A stretch of 64,000 nt of DNA from Escherichia coli. Its GTDB lineage: Bacteria; Pseudomonadota; Gammaproteobacteria; Enterobacterales; Enterobacteriaceae. Position numbers and translations under genes: made by a program. The DNA lies in the NCBI RefSeq assembly GCF_024223415.1, contig NZ_CP100500.1. One strand, written 5' to 3'. How positions within the stretch are numbered: position 1 is the stretch's first letter; each line of letters starts with the position of its first letter. The notes under the pieces are model-generated. The model was not told the DNA's origin and did no database searches. It saw only the letters and a program-made list of their open reading frames with translations. This document shows, in pieces, positions 1 through 53,642 of this stretch.

Positions 1-232
1 AACTCGCACATCTTTTTCACGTAAGCTATTGTTTATTCCGTTGAACCTCATTTTGAGGTTGATTGACATACCCGGGGTAAACTCATCTGCGTTGCGGTTG
101 TATATCTGGGTGATTTTATCGCCGCGCGAATACCCCAGCGCAGTAGCCAGCGTTGCGGCGGTGAACCACTGCCTGCCGTTGTGTTCGGTAGTTTCGAGAA
201 CGTGAGATTTGAATACGAGTTGGGTACTCATA
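1..232 (-). CDS. Bro-N / antirepressor-like protein, N-terminal part only (gene runs off the window start)
   Basis: Own translation of the reverse strand from the ATG at 230-232: MSTQLVFKSHVLETTEHNGRQWFTAATLATALGYSRGDKITQIYNRNADEF..., which resembles phage Bro-N domain proteins. Not in the ORF track because it is open-ended. Confidence 0.45.
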
Positions 233-613
233 GTTTTATGTCCTTTGCAATATTTTGAATTCACCCCTTTTGAGAGGGCGGTCAGGCGCTCAAAACCGTG
301 CAAAGTCGGCGGGCGTATTTCCCTTACGGGTATTGTATTAGCCTCACGCCCGACCATTGAATTCTCAATATCGTGGACATAAAAAATCCGCATGTCTGTC
401 GGGTGCGGTTTCCGCTTTGCAAGGTGTTTTGAGCACCATGACGCGGAATATAGCCCCGTTAACGCGACATTGTCAAACTGAAGAATTTTACGGATAGCAA
501 AAACCCCCGAACTGGTGAGGAACAGGGGTTTTTACTTTACTACTGATTTCGCGGTACGCTGATCTCAAACAGACGAGATTATCACCAGACTTGTAAAGTA
601 AGCAATGGGCGGA

Positions 614-1357
614 TTAAGATGAAGCGTTCGCTATCTGAGCGTCGCTGAATGTGAAACCCGCCTGTTTAAGACGCTGGATTAAGCGGGGTACTGTCTCCCG
701 AACATGGTCATTAAAGTTGAGATAAAGAATACCGGCGGCATCAGAAGGCTGCTCAAGGTGTTGTTTCTGCAGGATGACCACGTTACTGCGACCGAGTGAA
801 GATAACAGCATCCCCATTTCTAAAACTACGTTTTGGCGTGCCCTGGGCTGGGCTGCTTCCTGGCCGTCTCTTTTGGCGTATCCCACATCATCGGGAGTGA
901 GGAGAACAATGCCGAAACGCGTCGCTGTCCGTCCCTGACCAATTTCACGTTCAAGCTCTTCAATTATCGTAAGCCCGGTCCCACCGGTATTCTGCAAAAT
1001 AAAATGGTCAGGTAATCCAAGCTTATGAAGAATAAGTTCAAGCTGCTCTTTTGCTACATGATCGTGACCGTGAACGATGAAAATCTTTTTTGCTGGTTCT
1101 TGCATCATGACTGGAGCGTTACCCAGGTGTTCATTAATAATGGCTTCAACCTCAGGTTTTGCCGCTTGTGAACCCTGAATCAAAATCGTTCCGGTGTGGT
1201 AAAGCGTTATGATGGCACCATTACTTAAACGATAACAATCATGACCGGTTTTGTTTTCTTCTCCGGTAACATCAAATCCGGATTCGACTAAAAATTGACG
1301 AAAAGTATCGACAGCGTATGGGTATTTGAGTGCCATTTCATTGAGTTCCTGCATCAT
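614..1357 (-). CDS. Two-domain protein: unknown ~85-aa N-terminal domain plus C-terminal TIR-like domain (FIVHGHD ... LLTPDDVG ... RARQNVVLEMG ... LGR motifs, as in the CAP12/PycTIR-type TIR-like family). Candidate defence/abortive-infection effector
   Basis: 247-aa ORF; motif pattern recalled from the predicted nucleotide-binding TIR-like family; gene is bracketed by an exact 15-bp direct repeat and followed by a hairpin with T-tract. Confidence 0.5.
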   Translation of the reverse strand: MMQELNEMALKYPYAVDTFRQFLVESGFDVTGEENKTGHDCYRLSNGAIITLYHTGTILIQGSQAAKPEVEAIINEHLGNAPVMMQEPAKKIFIVHGHDHVAKEQLELILHKLGLPDHFILQNTGGTGLTIIEELEREIGQGRTATRFGIVLLTPDDVGYAKRDGQEAAQPRARQNVVLEMGMLLSSLGRSNVVILQKQHLEQPSDAAGILYLNFNDHVRETVPRLIQRLKQAGFTFSDAQIANASS

Positions 1358-1410
1358 TGTGTTCCTGTAAAGTAAGCAATAGTTAACAAAGTTGCAACGA
1401 CAACGATCAC

Positions 1411-3477
1411 CTAATCTTTTCTGTAACGGTACGCCTCGAATCCTCCGGCGTTTAGTGGAATGCTCGTGGCCCAGTCAGGAACGGTTGCCAGTAACTGGCT
1501 GAGATGTTCTGCTGAGTAATCGGGTGAGTCAGGGGCCTCACTTATAATTTCATCGTGTACCGTCAGCACAATGCTGTAACCGGCATCTTCGATAAGCGGC
1601 ATGTTTCCGGCCAGAACGTCGCGGGCGGCCGCCTGGGTGACGTTCTCCACCAGCTTTCCGCCGTAGGTTTTGAGTCGTTGCCATTTACGCGAATAAGAGT
1701 TAACACCCATATAGGTGATATCCCCTTTTTCGATAACCGGAGACGGGTAGCATACAGCGCGTCCGGATGGTAGCTGTATGCGCAGCCACGCGCCATCGCG
1801 GCGGATTTTAAGATAACCGCAATACAATGTTTTTTGCGGTGTGGCGATTGCAGTGCGGACGGTGCGCTCCAGTTCGTACCAGAAATCGCAGGTCGCCGGG
1901 TGCGCCCTGCGCCACAGGCGCTTGAGCGAGTCACATGCGATGAATACACGCTCGGACAGGCCAAAGGTCGACTTACGTTTAACCGATTCGTCGTACCAGC
2001 TTTTCGCCTCGCGGATAACATCGCGGGGAATGTTTGGCAGTGCGGCGTTCGCCAGCTCGTCGAGATCGAGACCGTAAACCAGAGCAAAAGTGATGAAAGC
2101 CGATACACCACCTCCATAACCCAGACCGAGTTCCATGACTTTACCGATCTGACGCATGTGTTTATCAACATCATCTGGTGCAATATCGAAAGCTTTTGCA
2201 TACGCCAGTTTATATAAGTCCGGACCCGTTCCGGCGTCGTACTCTCTGAATGCATTCAGTTTCCATTCTTCTCCCGCCAGCCATGCCAGCATACGGCCTT
2301 CAATGTTCGACAAGTCACTTACCACCAGTTTTTTGCCTGTTGGCGCGATAATGCAGCCACGTAACGCTGAACTGGTTAGTTCCATGATATTGTCAAACAG
2401 CAGGTCTGCACATCCGGCTTTCAGTGCTTCGATGCCTTCGTCTATTTGTTCCTGTTTTAGTGAAGGGCGGGGAAGGTTCTGGGGCTGGAATAGCCGTCCG
2501 GCCCAACGACCGGTACGTGACGCCCCGCAGAACTGTAGCGTACCGCGTAAGCGCCCGTCGTGGCTTACGCCTTTCATCAGTGCCTTGTATTTACTGGTGC
2601 TGGTAGTACTGGCCTGCAGGCGGATAGCCAGCAGTTCTTTCACGGCAGATGGTAAATTGGGGTCGGCAATACGACGTTCCAGAGTACTGCGTTGCATGTC
2701 TGGTAGCTCCACACCGTAGGATTCAACAATGTGCTTAATCAACGCGTCCCGTTGTGTGGCTGCCTGCACTTCGCCATCAGTCATTTCCTGTGTACGCTTT
2801 GCCAGGCGCTTTTGCTCCTGGTCTACCGCTTCGATCGCAGCGCGCGCGAGTTGAATGTCCATGCAGACGCCCCGGTCGTTGATCTGCTGATCACGATGCC
2901 AGAGTGCCAGTTCTGTCCCCTGATAATTCCACTTCGGCAGACGTTTATAGACTTCGCGCATTGCCTCGATATCCAGTCCGGCGTAAGCAACAAAGCGCCG
3001 CCATTCTTCCGGGTGGGTTTTGCTGGTGGCCCGGCGCAGTTTGCTGTTTTTCGGGCGTGGTTTGCACAGTAGCTGAATTAGTGACTTGCCTTCTTTATCC
3101 TTCGCTTTGTCCTGCGGGACGCCCAGCACTTCGCAAAGAGCGCCCAGCGCCCCCGGAAGACCATGCGCCAGCGCCTGCACCATTGTGTCGCGCCAGCGTT
3201 CAGTAGCTGGTGACATGTCTGGCATACAATGACGAAGTATCGTGCGGTCAAAGTGCGAATTGTGCGCCCAAACCTCCACATCCGGGTTTTTGAGTGCGAG
3301 ACGTAATTCCGGGGGGATTTTTTCGCCTGCGGTCAGGTCCCACACCTGCACGGGATCGTTATTGATGGCCCAGGCAAAAAGCATAATTTCAGCGCCTTCT
3401 GCATATGCGTGGGTACCGTTTTTTATCGGTATTTCAGAGAAGGTTTCAAGATCGAGCCAGAGAATGTTTGCAGGCAA
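1411..3477 (-). CDS. Phage family-A DNA polymerase with N-terminal DnaQ-like 3'-5' exonuclease
   Basis: 688-aa ORF; exonuclease motif LDLETFS near the N-terminus; polymerase motifs [16 protein letters not shown] (motif B-like K...YG) and VHDEI (motif C-like). Confidence 0.85.
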
Positions 3478-3546
3478 AACAGGACCCTCCGTAAATTAAA
3501 CGGCTACAAAAAGCCCCTGACAGTGCAGGGGCGGGATTGATTTGAA

Positions 3547-4311
3547 TTAACGAGGTAAGGCTGGTGGAATGTATCTGCCGATGCGGTCTTCTATGGTCGG
3601 CAGAATGCACATGCTGTCGCTGAAGCGGTCATGCAACTGGTAAACCAGTTTAGAATCCATTTTTTCGAGAGCAGGCATTAACTGCGCCCGCCAGATTTCG
3701 TTGATGCGCCGGAAGTTATGACAGACGGCGCGGAGATTGTTGATGAACATTTCCTTCTCTGCGTCAGTGACTTCTGTCTGTGTTTTCTGAATACGCTTTG
3801 TGCTGCCATTCCGATAGAAGCGTTCCTGAGCAGCAACAGCCTCATCCACGGTTGGATAGCACCCTACGTAAACGCTCTTCTCTCCGTTCCATGCGTAGGC
3901 TCTGTACGGGTTGTATTTGCTCCGGTGATGGTAAACCATCTTCGGCAGACACTCCCTGTGTGGCGCCAGTATCGTGGAGGATTGCTGGTGCAGTTTGCGT
4001 TCGCACTCGATGAAGTATCGGCGGATCTGGCGGCCTTTTTCGTTGCGCTCCACCATCGCCAGTTCTTTGGCCGTGTCGAGGGTGAGGTGGTAGTCCTTAC
4101 AAAGAACATTTTTACGCTTTCCAGTTTTGGAAAACGTTACGATATAATCCTGATTTTCAACGAATTCATAGTCTGCAATTCGTGATGTAATCCACGCTGC
4201 AAACACTTTCCCTACCCCAAGGAATGCGTGCAGATCGCGAGCATTGCAGAGCAGGGTGGTTTCGTTGGCGATAGCGCCGTTGAAAACGGGGATGAGTTGA
4301 GTTGCCATCAC
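3547..4311 (-). CDS. Protein with AntA/AntB-type antirepressor N-terminal domain
   Basis: 254-aa ORF; N-terminal LIPVFNG ... LHAFLGVGKVFAAWITSRIADYEFVENQDY ... YHLTLDTAKELAMVERNEKGRQIRRYF resembles the AntA/AntB antirepressor domain. Confidence 0.55.
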   Translation of the reverse strand: MMATQLIPVFNGAIANETTLLCNARDLHAFLGVGKVFAAWITSRIADYEFVENQDYIVTFSKTGKRKNVLCKDYHLTLDTAKELAMVERNEKGRQIRRYFIECERKLHQQSSTILAPHRECLPKMVYHHRSKYNPYRAYAWNGEKSVYVGCYPTVDEAVAAQERFYRNGSTKRIQKTQTEVTDAEKEMFINNLRAVCHNFRRINEIWRAQLMPALEKMDSKLVYQLHDRFSDSMCILPTIEDRIGRYIPPALPR

Positions 4312-4469
4312 AGTTACCTCTAACGGTGAAATTCACCGCCACCACTGAGTTGCAAATCTCATATGGGTGGCGAACTGACGAGGTTTGCAATACCGGCGTT
4401 AGAGGAAACCGGCGCGCCGAAGCGCCCCCGCCAGCCCGCCATAATGCGAACGTGGCAAAGCTTGCGACA

Positions 4470-4500
4470 ATAAAAAAGACGCTGGCGCGTCTGGTGTCGC
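4470..4500 (-). terminator. Rho-independent terminator-like hairpin downstream of the DUF2815 gene
   Basis: On the minus strand, AGACGCGCCAGCGTCT hairpin followed by TTTTTTATT (plus-strand aataaaaaagacgctggcgcgtct). Confidence 0.5.
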
Positions 4501-4691
4501 CCCTAACAATTCCGGGTTGCAAATCCCGATCTCCATTTGGGAGATTCGGTGAGCATAAACCGGAAGGGGGCGATGAGTCAATATCGGGGTAGCAGGGCGA
4601 CTGGGTGCTAACCAGAACAATACAGGTAGCTCCGGGCATATTCCCCTTTGCAAAAACACCCGGCGTTTAACCGGGCGTCTGTGAAGCAGGA

Positions 4692-5240
4692 TTAAATCAG
4701 TGCTTCAGCATCAGCACCTTCGCTGATATCGTCGAAATCGTCAGCGCTTGCCACTCCGCCGCCAGCGAATGCATCGCCGTCTCGCAGGAACTGGACTCCG
4801 CCGAGTGAGGCATTAATGCGTTTACCGAAATTATTGTCCTGTGCCCAGATATCGATAACGGCGTTTACATAGCACCCTGCATAGGGACGTCCATCAGCCT
4901 GAGTAAGTGGCGAACGATCGCGATCAAGAACAGCCGGGCGCGCTTTGTTAGCAGCATTCAGGAAGAAATTACCGGGGAAACCTTCATACTCTGCTTTTTC
5001 ATCGCCGTCATGCAGGCACAGATTGAGTTTCTTCTCCAGTTGGTTATAAACAGCCTCCCACTTCTCTCCCCATTTTTCCTTTGCGACCTGCTTCATTGCT
5101 TTACGGATTTCTTCCAGTTGTGGGTGTTCGGGAGACATTAAAAATACAGCGGAGAAACGCGGATCGCCTTCGCCGTTTACAGTTTTAGCTTCAAACAGCG
5201 CAGGAAAAGCCAGACGAACATTGTTCAGCTTCAGTTTCAT
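4692..5240 (-). CDS. DUF2815-type phage protein (putative ssDNA-binding protein of the PolA/DUF2800 replication module)
   Basis: 182-aa ORF starting MKLKLNNVRLAFPALFEAK, acidic C-terminal tail; adjacent to DUF2800-like gene as commonly seen in phages. Confidence 0.55.
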   Translation of the reverse strand: MKLKLNNVRLAFPALFEAKTVNGEGDPRFSAVFLMSPEHPQLEEIRKAMKQVAKEKWGEKWEAVYNQLEKKLNLCLHDGDEKAEYEGFPGNFFLNAANKARPAVLDRDRSPLTQADGRPYAGCYVNAVIDIWAQDNNFGKRINASLGGVQFLRDGDAFAGGGVASADDFDDISEGADAEALI

Positions 5241-11687: not shown

Positions 11688-12386
11688 ATGCTGACAGCAA
11701 TCAACAACGAAAAAATTGTCATCGCAAGGGACGCGCAGAAACCGGGAATTTTCGCCTGCCCGGAATGTGGTGAAGTTGTCACCCTGCGGAAAGGTTCGGT
11801 GAAAGTTCACCATTTCGCCCATCGCAGCACCACATCCTGCGGTTACGGGAAAGGCGAATCTGAGTTGCACATGGATTTGAAAATGCAGGTCTATGACGCG
11901 TTGAACGCGCATCGTGAGGTGGAATATGTTGCGATGGAGGTCGCAGTCGGTGATGTTCGTCCCGATGTGCTGGCGATTATTCGGGGTCAGAAGGTTGCTT
12001 TTGAGATTCAGGTTAGTTCGCTGAGTATTGAAGACCTCTATCGCCGCACGGTTGCGTACGCAGCTCAGGACATTGCGATGATCTGGATCCTGCACTGGCC
12101 TGAAGGTACTGCACTGGACCGGCTTTATCACCCTGCATCATGGGAGCGATGGTTACATACTTGCGGAATGGCAACTCTGTACTTCTGGGCGGGCGATGGC
12201 TGGGTCAGGCCAGTGCGTCTGGGAAACCGACAACATGGATTACAAAGAGCACCTCGTGCCCATCTGGTTGATGATTTCGAACCAAAGCGAACAGGCGGGT
12301 GGATTAAAGGTGATTTTCTGATACCTGCTCGCTTTATCTGGAATCGTGTGCGACGGCAAAAACGTAGAGGTCAGAGCTATGCGTAA
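11688..12386 (+). CDS. CoiA-like protein (competence protein CoiA-like family, predicted nuclease)
   Basis: Start at ATG 11688 (AAGGGGG RBS); N-terminal CPECGEVVTLRKGSVKVHHFAH zinc-finger-like segment typical of the CoiA-like family. Confidence 0.5.
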   Translation: MLTAINNEKIVIARDAQKPGIFACPECGEVVTLRKGSVKVHHFAHRSTTSCGYGKGESELHMDLKMQVYDALNAHREVEYVAMEVAVGDVRPDVLAIIRGQKVAFEIQVSSLSIEDLYRRTVAYAAQDIAMIWILHWPEGTALDRLYHPASWERWLHTCGMATLYFWAGDGWVRPVRLGNRQHGLQRAPRAHLVDDFEPKRTGGWIKGDFLIPARFIWNRVRRQKRRGQSYA

Positions 12387-12813
12387 TATTCAACAGGTTT
12401 TAGAGCGCTGGGGTGGCTGGGCTGCCAATAGCAACACCACAGTGAGCTGGGCTCCAATAGCGGCGGGATTTAAAGGGCTGGTAGTCAGCAGCCTGCCTGG
12501 CAGGCTGAGTTGCTGCGACGACGATGGCCTGATTATCGATGCTTGCGTCTGTCGGCTGCAGCAGGTCCGTAAGCCTGAGGAACTGGACGTCATTATGCTG
12601 TACTACGTCTACGGGTTAAGCAAACGTGAGATAGGACGGCGGCGTCGATGTTCTGAAGGATTTATCCGCCAGCAGTTGCAGGTAGCTGAGGGATTCATTG
12701 AGGGGTGTCTCTGCATGCTGGGTGTGAGCCTTCAGATGGATCCTGAGGTCGAAATTCAAAGGGATGAAAAAAGTATTAGTGCGCTACGCAAAAACTGCGC
12801 TACGCTGGTATGA
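12379..12813 (+). CDS. Q: Late-gene antiterminator Q (phage 21/82-type Q family)
   Basis: Sequence MRNIQQVLERWGGWAA ... resembles lambdoid Q antiterminators; position immediately upstream of the lysis cassette. Confidence 0.7.
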   Translation: MRNIQQVLERWGGWAANSNTTVSWAPIAAGFKGLVVSSLPGRLSCCDDDGLIIDACVCRLQQVRKPEELDVIMLYYVYGLSKREIGRRRRCSEGFIRQQLQVAEGFIEGCLCMLGVSLQMDPEVEIQRDEKSISALRKNCATLV

Positions 12814-12989
12814 GTTGAATTTCTGACCTCAACGAAGAGCTCCAAATTATTGGGGGTTTTTTGTACGCACAACAGGTAATAGTATTGAACCCGCAGACCT
12901 CGCGGAACTGGTGAAAGGTGCCGCGCAGTGCTCTTATCGTTGTGGTGAAGCTCAATGGCGAGCTAGCAGATAGGCGACAGTGAAAATAC

Positions 12990-13070
12990 TAGTCATGTAT
13001 CTGACCGCCGCGCGTACTGCAATCGGCAGCGCACCGATGGAAGCCGGTTCGATTCCGGCCGCCACAACCC
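12990..13070 (+). other. tRNA-like element (canonical T-arm GCCGG-TTCGATT-CCGGC and a foldable anticodon-like stem) that does not fold as a complete canonical tRNA
   Basis: gaagccggttcgattccggccgccaca read directly; possible anticodon stem atcgg-cagcgca-ccgat; no convincing D-arm or 5' acceptor strand at the correct spacing. Confidence 0.3.
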
Positions 13071-13187
13071 AAACTGAGCCGTAGCCACTGGCTGTCCTGA
13101 ACTCCTCAGTGATAGTTACGCTGCGGCCTTCTTTTTCCCCTTCCTAATACAAGAACTACGCAATCCGTTACTGGCGGAGGCGTTGCT

Positions 13188-13403
13188 ATGAAATCAATGG
13201 ACAAAATCTCAACTGGCATTGCCTACGGAACATCCGCTGGTAGTGCGGGATACTGGTTTTTACAGTGGTTGGATCAGGTCAGTCCGTCACAGTGGGCTGC
13301 TATTGGTGTGCTGGGGAGTCTGGCACTGGGCTTTCTGACTTATCTGACGAATCTGTACTTCAAGATAAAAGAGGACCGTCGCAAGGCGGCGCGGGGAGAG
13401 TAA
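13188..13403 (+). CDS. S: Class II holin, phage 21 S-type (pinholin) with dual starts MKSMDK
   Basis: 71-aa [74 protein letters not shown], closely resembling the phage 21 S holin as recalled; GGAGG RBS. Confidence 0.85.
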
Positions 13404-13536
13404 TTCAATGGAACATAATAATGAAAAATCCAGAGAGCACTCTGGAAACAGCAAACATTATTCCATTGCTCATTCATTCGGCGGCTTTCGTGATGTAGTC
13501 GGACAGGGTGCTGAGAGAGAACAGGAGAGTAATACA

Positions 13537-14343
13537 ATGACTCAAAACCATGAACTGGTTGTTAAAGGAACCCGAAATTTTGAGAATAAAATTGCGGTGA
13601 TTTTAACCCTGCGTGACAAAAAGCGTTTTGCCTGTGAGATATTTGACTTACACATCAACCTTGAACGACAGGAAGGCGCCACTCTGGAGTTTTATGAGTC
13701 AGAGGCAATAAAACGGGCAAAGACATTGTTCCGGGATGTTGCTGCAGGGTTATGTGAAGGGGACGAGCTGTCGCCGGAAAAGCGCCCCATAATTTTACAG
13801 GCGCACAATGTGTGGATAACCTACAAAGGAAAGCTACCGGGAAGAATTACTGGTTCTCTGAAGATGCCGCCGTCAACACTGCGGTCAGAAAAAGAGGCGT
13901 CTTGTCTGCAGTCTGAGTACTCCATTACGGTTAAAAGTGCCGGAGAGGAAGGAAATAAACGTTATTTTATTGCGTCTGCACCTGATAAAGATCAGGAATG
14001 GGAGTGTAACCGGCCATCCTTTGTTGTATACGGAGATGGCGGGAAAATAACCATCTCAGAAAATGGGAAATTAACACCGCCATCGCACCAGCATAGTGAG
14101 GCGCTCATTGAATTTGCCATTGATTACCTGAAGAACAATAAAAAGCAGGGGCTGATGAAGCGCATTGGTCGTTGCATGGGATATCTGCAGGTAGCAGCTG
14201 AGATTGAAATGATGGCCAGTGGTGCTGACAATGATGCAGTTGTGCTGGAGGCTCTTCTGCGTGATTTTGATAATACGCCCTTTAAGAAAGCACCTGTTGA
14301 CTGGATGCAGCCGGGGATGACTTATCTGAAAGGGCGTATATAA
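13537..14343 (+). CDS. Hypothetical protein (moron inserted between holin and endolysin)
   Basis: ORF track frame 13408..14343; preferred start ATG 13537 preceded by AGGAG; no recognised domain. Confidence 0.45.
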   Translation: MTQNHELVVKGTRNFENKIAVILTLRDKKRFACEIFDLHINLERQEGATLEFYESEAIKRAKTLFRDVAAGLCEGDELSPEKRPIILQAHNVWITYKGKLPGRITGSLKMPPSTLRSEKEASCLQSEYSITVKSAGEEGNKRYFIASAPDKDQEWECNRPSFVVYGDGGKITISENGKLTPPSHQHSEALIEFAIDYLKNNKKQGLMKRIGRCMGYLQVAAEIEMMASGADNDAVVLEALLRDFDNTPFKKAPVDWMQPGMTYLKGRI

Positions 14344-14352
14344 GGTGGCTCG

Positions 14353-14667
14353 TTATCTGTTGCTGGATAATCGACTGAAGATGCGTTCTTTTTGTGTTTT
14401 TGCGTAATGATTGTCCCACTCACAATCAAGGTAGCTTAATTCTTCATTCAACCAGTTATTTATATTGGTCTTAATACGCATAAGCATGGGCTGTGTTAAT
14501 GCTCTGGCGATAATGCCGAGAGTCACAGGTGTGAGATGTCCATACGGCTCAGCCTGAATGGATTTTACTGCATCGTGTTCTTGTGGGAGGAGTAAGAGGC
14601 ACTCTGATTTTACCCGCTCATTTATGGCTTGCAGGCATAAATCATAATTATGTTGATCGTTATGCAT
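14353..14667 (-). CDS. Hypothetical protein, convergent partner of the 13537..14343 moron gene
   Basis: 104-aa ORF on the opposite strand to the late operon; no recognised domain. Confidence 0.4.
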   Translation of the reverse strand: MHNDQHNYDLCLQAINERVKSECLLLLPQEHDAVKSIQAEPYGHLTPVTLGIIARALTQPMLMRIKTNINNWLNEELSYLDCEWDNHYAKTQKERIFSRLSSNR

Positions 14668-14795
14668 GGTTAATCCTCTACTGAAATTGTCAGATATATT
14701 TCAGCCATCAGGAAAAACGCCAGTGTCCTACCGCTGGCGGGCTGAAGATTTAACATATCCAGGGATTCGGAACCGATAAATCCTGATAAATATCC

Positions 14796-15329
14796 ATGAA
14801 CACCAAAATCAAATATGGCCTGTCGGCTGCCGTTCTGGCACTGATTGCCGTCGGTGCGCCTGCGCCTGATATTCTCGACCAGTTTCTGGATGAAAAAGAA
14901 GGTAACCACACAACGGCATACCGCGATGGTTCCGGTATATGGACCATCTGTCGTGGTGCCACAATGGTGGATGGTAAGCCCGTCATACCGGGAATGAAGC
15001 TGTCGAAGGAAAAATGCGTTCAGGTTAATGCCATTGAGCGTGATAGGGCGCTGGCATGGGTGGAGCGCAATATTAAAGTACCTCTGACCGAAGCACAGAA
15101 AGCGGGTATTGCGTCATTCTGTCCCTATAACATTGGCCCCGGTAAGTGTTTCCCGTCGACGTTTTATAAGCGGCTTAATGCCGGTGATCGTAAAGGTGCC
15201 TGTGAGTCGATTCGCTGGTGGATTAAGGACGGTGGGCGTGATTGCCGCACACGTTCAAATAACTGCTACGGACAGGTTATTCGTCGTGACCAGGAAGCAG
15301 CACTTGTGTGCTGGGATATCGACAGATGA
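14796..15329 (+). CDS. R: SAR-endolysin (T4-lysozyme-like muramidase with N-terminal signal-anchor-release domain)
   Basis: N-terminal GLSAAVLALIAVGAPAP SAR-like segment; E...D...T catalytic spacing (DEKEGN, YRDGSG, WTICRG). Confidence 0.8.
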   Translation: MNTKIKYGLSAAVLALIAVGAPAPDILDQFLDEKEGNHTTAYRDGSGIWTICRGATMVDGKPVIPGMKLSKEKCVQVNAIERDRALAWVERNIKVPLTEAQKAGIASFCPYNIGPGKCFPSTFYKRLNAGDRKGACESIRWWIKDGGRDCRTRSNNCYGQVIRRDQEAALVCWDIDR

Positions 15330-15419
15330 GCAGAATATTTTGCTGAAAAATGACGTTGGCCAACGCGGACGGATAACACGATATTCGACATAAATGAATT
15401 TAAATAGTGAATAAAAGCA

Positions 15420-15460
15420 GAAACCCCGATTGTTGGTCGCAATCGGGGTTTTGTGTTTCT
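15420..15460 (+). terminator. Strong hairpin (12-bp stem AAACCCCGATTG / CAATCGGGGTTT) followed by T-rich tract, downstream of the endolysin gene
   Basis: aaaccccgattgttggtcgcaatcggggttttgtgtttc read directly. Confidence 0.55.
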
Positions 15461-15644
15461 GGCAGTAAGTTATGGGAGGCTGCCTTGATTAATTTTAGCG
15501 GAGGAGACTGGATTGTGGAAGCTCTGAAATTGCTCGAAAGAAGTCCGGTTCTGAGAAGAATGTTTTATATAGCTCTTATAGTTATCGGAGCATTCGCCGT
15601 TGCGAAATCACTTCCGGGAATAGCTGAAATCATAAAGGCGCTGA

Positions 15645-15818
15645 ATGCATAAAGAATACCTGGCTGAGGCTGACAAACAGGTCTCTGAATTGAAAGCTCC
15701 GGTAACCGATGACATCAGCGGAGCGGTGGCTTTTGCCATTAAGTGGGTGGCAGTCGGCGTTGCTATATCACCGGTACTGTATGGGCTGGCAAAGCTGGTT
15801 ATTGCGTTGAAATCATAA
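15645..15818 (+). CDS. Small hydrophobic protein (57 aa, one predicted TM helix) within the endolysin-Rz insertion
   Basis: Own translation MHKEYLAEADKQVSELKAPVTDDISGAVAFAIKWVAVGVAISPVLYGLAKLVIALKS; below the ORF-track size cutoff. Confidence 0.3.
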   Translation: MHKEYLAEADKQVSELKAPVTDDISGAVAFAIKWVAVGVAISPVLYGLAKLVIALKS

Positions 15819-15819
15819 C

Positions 15820-15884
15820 TGTTACGGCCAGGTTATTCGTCGTGACCAGGAAAGTGCATTAGCCTGTTGGGGGATAGATCAGTG
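15820..15884 (+). pseudogene. Duplicated 3' end of an endolysin gene (remnant coding ...[20 protein letters not shown]), marking an insertion boundary
   Basis: ctgttacggccaggttattcgtcgtgaccaggaa at 15820 nearly repeats ctgctacggacaggttattcgtcgtgaccaggaa at the 3' end of R (about 15268..15301). Confidence 0.6.
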
Positions 15885-16349
15885 AGCAGAGTCGCCGCGA
15901 TTATTTATGCTCTGGTTATCTGCATCATCGTCTGCCTGTCGTGGGCGGTCAATCATTACCGTGATAACGCCATCGCCTACAAAGAACAGCGTGATAAAAA
16001 AGTCAGTGAGCTGAAGCAGGCGACCGCCACCATTACTGACATGCAGCAACGCCAGCGTGCTGCTGATGTACTCGATGCTAAATACACGAAGGAGTTGGCT
16101 GATGCGAAAGCTGAAAATGATGCTCTTCGGCGCAAGCTTGATAATGGTGGTCGGGTGCTCGTCAAAGGAAAATGCTCTGTGCCATCCTCAGCCGAAACCT
16201 CCAGCGCCTCCGGCATGGGCAATGATGCCACCGTCGAACTCTCTCCAGTTGCTGGACGAAACGTTCTCGGTATCCGGGACGGAATCATCAGAGACCAGAC
16301 AGCACTGAGAACGCTTCAGGAATATATCAGGACGCAATGCCTTCGATGA
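15867..16349 (+). CDS. Rz: Rz i-spanin (inner-membrane spanin subunit); true start probably GTG at 15882
   Basis: [33 protein letters not shown] ... closely resembles lambda Rz as recalled. Confidence 0.8.
16102..16308 (+). CDS. Rz1: Rz1 o-spanin lipoprotein embedded in the +1 frame of Rz
   Basis: [21 protein letters not shown] lipobox and proline-rich [11 protein letters not shown] segment inside the Rz gene. Confidence 0.7.
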
Positions 16350-33357: not shown

Positions 33358-34101
33358 ATGACAGAGACAGAATCAGCGATTCTGGCGCACGCCCGGCGAT
33401 GTGCGCCAGCGGAGTCGTGCGGCTTCGTGGTGAGAGCGCCGGAGGGGGAAAGATATTTCCCCTGCGTGAATATCTCCGGTGAGCCGGAGGCGTATTTCCG
33501 GATGTCGCCGGAGGACTGGCTGCAGGCAGAGATGCAGGGTGAGATTGTGGCGCTGGTCCACAGTCACCCCGGTGGTCTGCCCTGGCTGAGTGAGGCCGAC
33601 CGGCGGCTGCAGGTGCAGAGTGATTTGCCGTGGTGGCTGGTCTGCCGGGGGGCGATTCACAAGTTCCGCTGTGTGCCGCATCTCACCGGGCGGTGCTTTG
33701 AGCACGGGGTGACGGACTGTTACACGCTGTTCCGGGATGCTTACCATCTGGCGGGAATTGAGATGCCGGATTTTCATCGCGGGGATGACTGGTGGCGTAA
33801 CGGTCAGAATCTCTATCTTGACAATATGGAGGCGACTGGTTTTTACCGTGTCGCACTGACAGAGGCGCAGCCCGGCGACGTGCTGCTGTGCTGTTTTGGT
33901 TCATCGGTGCCGAATCATGCCGCCATTTACTGCGGCGACGGCGGGCTGCTGCACCATATTCCTGAACAACTGAGCAAACGAGAGAGGTATACCGACAAAT
34001 GGCAGCGACGCACACACTCCCTCTGGCGTCACCGGGCATGGCACGCATCTGCCTTTACGGGGATTTGCAACGATTTGGCCGCCGCATCGACCTTCGTGTG
34101 A
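33358..34101 (+). CDS. K: Tail assembly protein K (JAB/MPN plus NlpC/P60-like domains)
   Basis: HSHP motif (JAB) and later Cys/His region; lambda K position; start ATG 33358. Confidence 0.8.
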   Translation: MTETESAILAHARRCAPAESCGFVVRAPEGERYFPCVNISGEPEAYFRMSPEDWLQAEMQGEIVALVHSHPGGLPWLSEADRRLQVQSDLPWWLVCRGAIHKFRCVPHLTGRCFEHGVTDCYTLFRDAYHLAGIEMPDFHRGDDWWRNGQNLYLDNMEATGFYRVALTEAQPGDVLLCCFGSSVPNHAAIYCGDGGLLHHIPEQLSKRERYTDKWQRRTHSLWRHRAWHASAFTGICNDLAAASTFV

Positions 34102-53456: not shown

Positions 53457-53642
53457 AGTGGCTCATTCACCGACTTATGTCAGCCCCTTCGGGACGTGCT
53501 ACATAAAATTCGAATGACGCACAACAAGGTGCCTGCCGTCCAACTTCTGATATCAGCGTAGCTATATCAACCATCGGGCGAAACGTCGAGTTAGGCACCG
53601 CCTTATTCCATAACAAAGCCGGGTAATTCCCGGCTTTGTTGT
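53457..53642 (+). ncRNA. glmY: GlmY small regulatory RNA
   Basis: Begins agtggctcattcaccgacttatgtcagcccc downstream of the sigma-54 promoter, ends at terminator aaagccgggtaattcccggctttgttgt; located between purL and glrK as in E. coli K-12. Confidence 0.8.

Follow-up and report, generated by a model that had tools for sequence, protein, structure and literature searches.

Spacer upstream of a prophage antirepressor gene in Escherichia coli as the probable control region of an IsrK-C4-type RNA cassette

The association of an IsrK-like with a C4-like RNA has already been recognized and named as one phage immunity system (PMC3632133), and two of its representatives provide the closest points of comparison for the locus analysed here. 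In bacteriophage P1, the immI region is annotated in the order a1, b1, c4, a2, b2 (NC_005856; Citron and Schuster 1990), and the GenBank record states that the C4 RNA represses translation of icd and ant at a2/b2 (NC_005856). The site names used throughout this study, i.e., a1 and a2 for the sites in hairpin loops and b1 and b2 for those at the ribosome-binding sequence, are taken from the same record. In Gifsy-1 of Salmonella, the isrK-orf45(STnc1160)-anrP locus was studied experimentally by Hershko-Shalev et al. 2016 (PMC4825925), who reported the compensatory mutations G28A/C162U and G31A/C159U together with trans-activation by IsrK; mapped by coordinates in the present work, these mutations would fall on a1 and a' positions. 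The model put forward for Gifsy-1 holds that IsrK opens an inactive mRNA fold and that translation of the orf45 leader is needed for coupling (PMC4825925). An RNA of the Gifsy-1 IsrK type would also be expected to bind Hfq and to end at a leaky Rho-independent terminator, which yields a short and a read-through form. The two models disagree—with C4 as the repressor in P1 and an inactive mRNA fold, opened by IsrK, in Gifsy-1. Finally, the literature describes CI of the satellite phage P4, with seqA/seqC, and the corresponding elements of N15 as structural homologues, CI matching C4 and seqA matching IsrK (PMC4825925, PMC3632133); as in the locus reported below, a processed antisense RNA is flanked on both sides by copies of its target.

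When we scanned the Gifsy-1 locus with Rfam covariance models, matches to isrK (79.3 bits), c4-a1b1 (48 bits) and C4 (69 bits) were found in succession, followed by the antirepressor gene. This is also the order seen in the locus reported below. A C4-type RNA therefore lies where orf45 and the stable RNA STnc1160 are placed in Gifsy-1.

The locus under study is a further copy of this known IsrK-C4 system, which has already been described in P1, P7, P4, N15 and Gifsy-1. It belongs to an E. coli prophage contained in the window, i.e., the whole 64-kb stretch of DNA that was analysed, and occupies a spacer of ~380 bp between a DUF2815 gene and a gene encoding an AntA-domain protein (Table 1). The spacer extends from 4309 to 4691 if the latter gene starts at the ATG at 4308, or from 4312 to 4691 if it starts at the GTG at 4311; RefSeq places the start at the ATG equivalent to 4308 in a copy that is 99.8% identical, where the product is named 'phage antirepressor Ant'. 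The product was also assigned to the PHROG family anti-repressor Ant (E=5e-51), and the gene is referred to as ant hereafter. A preliminary description of this stretch had drawn attention to four TTGCAA-like motifs and a terminator in a spacer that it regarded as free of genes, and had suggested an internal regulatory site. All four strings that it quoted are present on the plus strand, with TTGCAA starting at positions 4350, 4385, 4517 and 4648 (irregular spacings of 35, 132 and 131 bp), and an exact 10-mer repeat, GATTTGCAAC, occupies 4349-4358 and 4516-4525. Across the whole 64-kb window the hexamer is rarer than expected, with 18 copies vs 30.9 in shuffled sequences. Finding four of them within 380 bp is accordingly improbable, whether judged against the whole window (Poisson P ~5e-6) or against the first 9 kb, where copies are more closely spaced (P ~2e-3).

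Table 1. Elements of the antirepressor locus and its flanks, listed in the direction of transcription; positions are those of the window.
Feature	Position	Strand	Basis or detail
DUF2815 / Enc34 ssDNA-binding gene, upstream	4692-5240	minus	Pfam, 152 bits
Terminator-like hairpin and U-run after the DUF2815 stop	~4651-4683	minus	-17.9 kcal/mol, z=-3.4
Sigma-70-like promoter, TTGACT-18 nt-TATGCT	4552-4581	minus	Consensus match
IsrK-like short RNA	4471-4545	minus	Rfam isrK (RF01394), full model at 4545-4472
Hairpin 1 of the IsrK-like RNA	4545-4529	minus	
a1 hairpin, CGGG-AUUUGCAA-CCCG	4528-4513	minus	Loop core UUUGCAA at 4523-4517
b1 site, GUUAGGGG	4507-4500	minus	
Rho-independent-type terminator of the IsrK-like RNA	4492-4471	minus	Hairpin and T-run
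C4 antisense RNA	4363-4446	minus	Rfam C4 (RF01695), full model 1-87
b' site, CCUCUAAC	4405-4398	minus	10-nt loop of C4 hairpin 2
a' site, UUGCAAA	4390-4384	minus	8-nt unpaired junction of C4
a2 hairpin, UGAG-AUUUGCAA-CUCA	4346-4361	minus	Core UUUGCAA at 4356-4350, complementary to a'
b2 target, CGUUAGAGG(UAAC), core GUUAGAGG	4313-4325 (CGUUAGAGG at 4325-4317)	minus	
ant, antirepressor gene with AntA N-terminal domain	3547-4308	minus	Pfam AntA, 87 bits
Terminator-like hairpin and T-run after ant	3503-3532	minus	Closes the cassette

Analysis of the spacer with covariance models identified two RNA genes, so that the stretch cannot be called gene-free, although no convincing protein gene was found in it. 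The first of these is an IsrK-like RNA, for which the isrK model gave 50.9 bits, just 0.9 bits over its gathering threshold of 50. The match begins just downstream of the sigma-70-like promoter, from which transcription is predicted to start near A4545. The c4-a1b1 model also aligned to this region (4558-4509), with a score of 29.8 bits that lies below its cutoff of 46.7. Only one promoter-like site was detected between 3400 and 5400, against 1.6 expected in shuffled sequences, and both the promoter and the terminators of this locus are consensus matches only. The promoter sequence is identical across three sister copies, its position matches that of the Gifsy-1 isrK and P1 P1c4 promoters, and the promoter-like and terminator-like sites of the IsrK type are both correctly placed. 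Within the RNA, the stem of the a1 hairpin is paired in 97.8% of cases among 45 relatives, and the terminator stem begins 7 nt past the end of b1. The terminator mentioned in the preliminary description has two counterparts, namely the hairpin with its T-run at 4492-4471 and a second hairpin at ~4683-4651; together with the promoter-like element, they bear out the suggestion of an internal regulatory site with signals of its own.

The second RNA gene is a C4 antisense RNA, for which the C4 model gave 70.6 bits (gathering score, 45; E=1e-11). Its minimum-energy fold has -43.3 kcal/mol (z=-4.1) and is identical to the centroid fold. As expected for C4, a long stem encloses two hairpins, and a' and b' remain unpaired in the segments UUCCUCUAAC (loop) and AUUGCAAA (junction). 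The conserved AU|GG context at the 5' end and the CCACC at the 3' end resemble those of P1; with the annotated P1 RNA as a guide, the mature C4 RNA is predicted to span ~4440-4366. From this predicted 3' end to the ATG of ant there are 57 nt, which hold no ORF and accommodate the a2 hairpin and b2. The stem of the a2 hairpin covaries among relatives (79% paired), and its 10-mer is the same as that of a1. The Shine-Dalgarno sequence of ant, GAGG (4320-4317), lies inside b2, 8 nt before the ATG at 4308. Additionally, a candidate helix between the 3' strand of C4 (4372-4366) and GGUGGCG (4343-4337) would enclose the a2 hairpin; complementarity at this place is visible by eye in many relatives, though counting of pairs gave an ambiguous result, with 57% paired and an equally good register shifted by 3.

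RefSeq annotations of sister genomes fill the same stretch with protein-coding genes, which might suggest that the spacer encodes a small protein. One copy has a PGAP call of 58 aa ('hypothetical protein') at the place matching ~4359-4535, and another has a 45-aa product matching ~4399-4536. However, these calls lie in different frames of nearly identical DNA, such that a 1-nt indel switches one to the other, and both overlap the isrK and C4 matches. Of the three candidate products, the 27-aa ORF overlapping C4 was scanned against PHROG and matched no family. We regard a protein-coding spacer as highly improbable.

Three of the four hexamers correspond to the RNA recognition sites a1, a' and a2. 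The first lies in the hairpin loop of the IsrK-like RNA, the second in the unpaired junction of C4 and the third in the hairpin just past C4. In related loci, a' is complementary to both a1 and a2, and the three change together; in P1, for instance, the equivalents of the three sites read TTGACAG, CTGTCAA and TTGACAG. The resemblance of a', a1 and a2 to direct repeats in the window follows from TTGCAA being its own reverse complement. Four similar motifs within 380 bp near a promoter, based on a palindromic hexamer of the kind typical for protein binding, would also suit sites in the DNA. The preliminary description had proposed operators in an array, which a regulatory protein would bind, or a second origin, of which the motifs would be the iterons. 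Yet the motifs are found in unpaired parts of RNAs matching curated models, and in relatives the copy inside the C4 fold is invariably complementary to the other two, i.e., the sites co-vary as complements. Moreover, a G.U-type substitution is tolerated at b1, the spacing is irregular, the fourth copy does not follow the changes of the others, and the spacer is not A+T-rich, with a G+C content of 55% vs 52% for the window. Hence, we give hardly any credence to either form of the DNA-site explanation.

As for the fourth copy (4648-4653), the hexamer covers the last part of the U-run that belongs to the hairpin after the DUF2815 stop and extends slightly beyond this run. This hairpin ends the upstream replication-gene unit and belongs to the flank, outside the cassette. 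The hexamer is unchanged in a sister locus in which all a-sites are altered, and it is absent from a copy of the cassette in an O121 prophage. We considered the possibility of a further upstream target ('a0', the fifth) and inspected 93 distinct upstream flanks of related modules. Cognate a-sites were present in 4 of them, against 1.0 +/- 1.0 expected, and three of these four represent one conserved flank that also occurs beside modules of another a-type; non-cognate sites numbered 20, against 16.5 +/- 4 expected. With neither co-change nor a convincing excess of a-sites in the flanks, this candidate was rejected, and the fourth copy is most likely due to chance. The functional role attributed to the repeats in the preliminary description would therefore hold for the three RNA sites and not for the copy at 4648-4653, which lies outside the system. 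A search beyond the spacer gave a similar outcome: apart from the scattered hexamers counted above, the 10-mer GATTTGCAAC recurs at 34062, where no b-like site was found nearby, and this copy was treated as chance instead of a further C4 target.

An unbiased repeat search returned, as its top inverted repeats, the pairs b'/b2, a'/a2 and a'/a1. The first of these joins 4313-4325 to 4397-4409 (13 nt, 92%), the second joins 4350-4360 to 4380-4390 (11 nt, 91%), and the third extends over 12 nt (83%). The 9-nt exact complement between b' and b2 was reproduced in 0.2% of shuffles. The perfect core of a':a2 is just 7 bp and, taken alone, appeared in 3% of shuffles; the leader matches to a' and b' occurred jointly in 5e-5 of shuffles. 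Pairing of the upstream site b1 (GUUAGGGG) with b' includes one G.U. At this single b1 position, a G.U wobble replaces an A-U pair both in the window and in 14 of 45 modules, which fits pairing at the RNA level on the minus strand.

Further evidence was obtained from a sister prophage in E. coli 89-3156. Here, promoter, terminator and scaffold are identical to those of the window, while all six sites are altered in concert: the a sites read UUAGCAC with GUGCUAA as a', and the b sites read GUUAAGAGG with CCUCUUAAC as b'. Duplex energies between C4 and the targets of the sister locus, calculated as a predictor of cross-immunity, were dominated by alternative sites and thus uninformative.

To survey the family more widely, we scanned IMG/VR with an 18-base pattern, which yielded 106 unique modules. 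This pattern replaced an earlier one of 14 bases that proved too loose, with real C4 genes at 11 of 120 loci, and an nhmmer search with a single module recovered 9 loci only—a DNA-level search being too weak for the C4-module family. The 106 modules contain 33 types of b' and 24 types of a'. A perfect a'-a2 complement of at least 7 nt was found in 98% of cognate vs 2% of non-cognate combinations, and a perfect b'-b2 complement of at least 8 nt in 87% of cognate vs 1.3% of non-cognate combinations. Formal pair counts were made on 45 modules, P1 and Gifsy-1 included. The b':b2 helices are 81-90% paired in this set, with UA, AU, GC and CG all occurring at single positions, and their covariation score was 0.370; shuffled sequences gave 0.156 and slid partners 0.10-0.16. 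The pairings that involve a1 and b1 gave a score of 0.289 vs 0.120. For a':a2, the formal count amounts to 69% paired in an alignment where MAFFT shifts some subfamilies by one column, and the per-sequence complement search is the fairer measure for this pair.

As in P1 and P7 immI, the window has a C4 RNA of the same fold, with a1/b1 upstream and a2/b2 downstream and with b2 lying on a ribosome-binding site; a terminator-like hairpin separates b1 from c4. Even in sequence, the b sites of P1 (GUUAGUGAGG) and of the window (GUUAGAGG) are similar. The likeness to Gifsy-1 extends along the entire unit—from the promoter through a first hairpin, the a1 hairpin, b1, the terminator and a ~25-nt spacer to the C4-type RNA, the a2 hairpin, b2 on the ribosome-binding site and the antirepressor gene. 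The isrK, c4-a1b1 and C4 models match both loci (with c4-a1b1 below cutoff in the window), and icd is absent from both. P1 differs in having b2 on the ribosome-binding site of icd, a leader gene on which ant expression depends by coupling; in the window b2 covers that of ant directly and there is no icd. P1 also possesses another promoter, which is repressed by C1 and has an operator; no such promoter is evident in the window. The a sites of P1 read UUGACAG. In Gifsy-1, the a and b sites are AUUGGCGU and AUCACCGG, respectively, and a 45-codon ORF runs over C4 with its stop overlapping the start of anrP, compared with an ORF of 27 codons in the window. The two loci also differ in genomic position (just past antQ in Gifsy-1, between DUF2815 and PolA in the window) and in the antirepressor protein itself, the Ant of the window having an AntA N-terminal domain.

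Taken together, we consider it very likely that the spacer contains the RNA elements that control a self-contained IsrK-C4 antirepressor cassette resembling P1 immI. By analogy with P1 and Gifsy-1, base-pairing by the IsrK-like and C4 RNAs probably keeps ant silent, and from the same two systems we infer how transcription, processing, translational block, decoy role and the effect on lysogeny might follow one another. Transcription would start near 4545 from a constitutive-looking promoter, and most transcripts would end at 4492-4471, giving an IsrK-like RNA of ~75 nt that carries a1 and b1. Read-through transcripts would continue into C4 (~4440-4366) and then into a2, b2 and ant, and C4 would be excised from them, possibly with a 5' cut by RNase P as in P1; C4 RNAs of the P1 type measure ~77 nt. 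The a' segment (UUGCAAA) would then pair with the a2 loop (UUUGCAA) and b' (CCUCUAAC) with b2 (GUUAGAGG). Because b2 contains the ribosome-binding site of ant, ribosomes would be excluded and no antirepressor produced, leaving the prophage repressor active; an incoming phage sharing the same a/b code would be silenced as well. The IsrK-like RNA, which would mimic both targets, is most likely a decoy that titrates C4, and the IsrK:C4 ratio would decide Ant production. This decoy role is our synthesis of the trans-activation data for Gifsy-1, and it leaves unexplained the raised basal expression seen with cis a1 mutations in Gifsy-1. The leader ORFs icd and orf45 are both missing here, and part of either published mechanism can therefore not apply. 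Moreover, C4-C4 pairing or loop-loop pairing between a1 and a2 could compete with the proposed contacts, the TTGCAA core being palindromic.

An alternative follows the Gifsy-1 model more literally: a1 would pair with a' in cis and thereby silence the read-through mRNA, the IsrK-like RNA would open this structure in trans, and translation of a leader ORF would be coupled into ant. The architecture is the same as that of the locus where this mechanism was demonstrated (PMC4825925), and an ORF does begin at the conserved AUGG of C4 (ATG at 4442). However, this ORF has just 27 codons and stops at 4359, i.e., 47 nt before the ant ATG, without the ATGA stop-start overlap of Gifsy-1, which makes the coupling step unlikely in the window. 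The length and end of the ORF vary widely in relatives, and no PHROG family was matched; a conserved leader peptide was accordingly rejected for this locus. According to the Gifsy-1 authors, as summarised in a passage of PMC12197685, the nucleotide sequence is conserved and the amino-acid sequence variable. Furthermore, b2 is placed directly on the ribosome-binding site of ant. We therefore judge a mechanism of this kind to be distinctly unlikely here.

A second alternative borrows from P4, where control would be exerted on transcription: C4 binding to nascent a1/b1 would promote the stop at 4492-4471, or a Rho-dependent stop would occur in the untranslated ant leader. The 7-nt distance between the end of b1 and the terminator stem is compatible with such a role, and the neighbourhood of b1 and terminator is kept in P1, Gifsy-1 and most of the 45 aligned modules. 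A block of icd translation probably halts ant transcription through polarity in P1. P4 CI/seqA/seqC have, moreover, been described as a structural homologue of IsrK-C4 (PMC4825925, PMC3632133). Against this, the sequence gives no sign that pairing alters formation of the terminator, and the strongest and longest complementarity is that to the ribosome-binding site. Termination of this type, which we regard as unlikely to be the main mode of control, may act alongside the translational block instead of replacing it.

Returning to the IsrK-C4 antirepressor switch, the arrangement in the window allows a more specific, tentative reading: a minimal version without a leader ORF, in which C4 blocks the ant ribosome-binding site directly and the IsrK-like RNA is a pure mimic. 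Across the family, the a and b sites may form an exchangeable two-part RNA 'immunity barcode'. The palindromic UUGCAA of the window would also allow C4-C4 pairing or loop-loop pairing of a1 with a2. In keeping with this possibility, the a' and b' types (at least 24 and at least 33, respectively) occur in many combinations, and the window and 89-3156 share one scaffold with different codes. No statement of a minimal switch or barcode of this kind was found in the searchable papers, which by itself does not establish that the idea is new.

The extent of the unit was examined by comparison with sister prophages. The block 3508-4599, comprising promoter, both RNAs, ant and terminator, recurs at 94.7% identity in the O121 prophage, where it stands beside a different polymerase gene. 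In a sister prophage carrying SIR2, similarity to the window ends at 4659, and the place between the genes for DUF2815 and DNA polymerase is taken by the SIR2 gene. In E. coli 89-3156, the equivalent RNA module precedes a protein with a BRO-N N-terminal domain, whose C-terminal half is shared with the window Ant. These comparisons indicate that ~3508-4599 is a mobile accessory cassette in a variable slot of the replication gene row, and that it would control the adjacent ant and not PolA/TIR—a terminator (3532-3513) follows ant and the shared cassette ends at ~3508. The earlier proposal that the spacer governs the distal PolA/TIR end of the operon is not supported.

These observations have several implications. 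An apparently empty stretch, filled inconsistently with 'hypothetical proteins' in RefSeq, can be annotated with two RNA genes that probably decide Ant production and hence prophage silence. The locus offers a natural example without a leader ORF, and together with 89-3156 it forms a natural pair—shared scaffold, different codes—suited to comparisons of specificity, within a family whose recognition codes display a large combinatorial variety. Moreover, the comparisons point to movement of the entire unit as a cassette, into a position where a sister prophage has a SIR2 defence-type gene. The surrounding prophage encodes a LexA-like repressor (8956-8267), a Q antiterminator (12346-12813) and lysis genes, but there is no space for stx beyond Q. 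Shiga toxin 2b (stx2b) is carried by the closest relative of the prophage, and switches of the IsrK-C4 type therefore bear on the induction of toxin phages.

Comparison of the window prophage with its sister in E. coli 89-3156, which has the same scaffold with all six recognition sites changed together, revealed a swap of the N-terminal domain downstream of the same RNA module. The protein encoded downstream of the module in E. coli 89-3156 (locus L122, 2209-2973) carries a BRO-N domain at its N-terminus; its C-terminal half matches the AntA-type antirepressor Ant of the window, with approximately 91% identity at the DNA level (against window positions 3465-3985). Gene content also varies in this neighborhood: a SIR2-family gene (L124, 1441-2943) occupies the slot of the window's ant cassette in the sister prophage ECONIH2, and a TIR-domain gene follows the DNA polymerase gene in the window. 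Accessory or defence-type genes seem to use the replication gene row as an insertion site. Near the left end of the window, a match to sRNA-Xcc1 was also observed just past this TIR-domain gene.

Features in the window outside the RNA module (window coordinates)
Feature	Position	Strand	Remarks
sRNA-Xcc1	272-355	minus	Rfam 79.8 bits, cutoff 53
CAP12/Pycsar-type TIR-domain protein gene	614-1357	minus	after DNA polymerase gene
Hairpin CUGG-UUAGCAC-CCAG	4601-4615	minus	upstream of module promoter
Q antiterminator, then DUF1327 gene, lysozyme, Rz	12346-16349		
GlmY sRNA	53457-53604		marks chromosomal flank

Within the module, the 3' strand of the closing stem of the C4 antisense RNA (CGCCACC, 4366-4372, minus strand) is also complementary to GGUGGCG (4337-4343), located downstream of the hairpin that bears target site a2, and an unprocessed transcript could therefore adopt either of two folds—C4 itself or a long hairpin presenting a2. 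Complementarity of this type was seen by eye in many relatives, with ambiguous pair counts.

The RNA genes are also overlaid by reading frames. RefSeq lists hypothetical proteins of 58 aa (L001, 12160-12336) and 45 aa (L123, 3200-3337) across isrK and the C4 gene in two sister copies of the module; both calls correspond to window positions ~4359-4536 and lie in different frames of nearly identical DNA, and they are probably spurious. Among 106 related modules from IMG/VR (e.g., loci L008, L051 and L106), the frame that starts from the conserved AUGG at the 5' end of C4 runs without a stop through the extracted piece in 79, continuing in frame into the downstream gene in 61 of those, with 'MAT...P.HPQF' as the N-terminus of the through-running frame. 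This openness may reflect common descent rather than selection, many of the modules being closely related.

Two further occurrences of a-type sequences were noted. The flank bearing the hairpin upstream of the module promoter is common to the window and E. coli 89-3156 loci, and the hairpin could be coincidental or a relic left by an earlier module; foreign a-sites showed no enrichment upstream of modules in the family as a whole (20 observed versus 16.5 +/- 4 expected). The 7-nt loop of the hairpin equals the a-site of the E. coli 89-3156 variant module (a1 loop AUUAGCAC) and differs from that of the window's own module. A third exact copy of the a1/a2 10-mer, GATTTGCAAC, lies far from the module (34062-34071, plus strand); since no b-like site was found near it, this copy is probably due to chance (~0.1 expected).

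Finally, the genes that follow Q in the window prophage leave no space for a toxin gene there, the position at which the closest relative of this prophage, in E. coli JNEC-KY203 at yfhL, carries stx2b.
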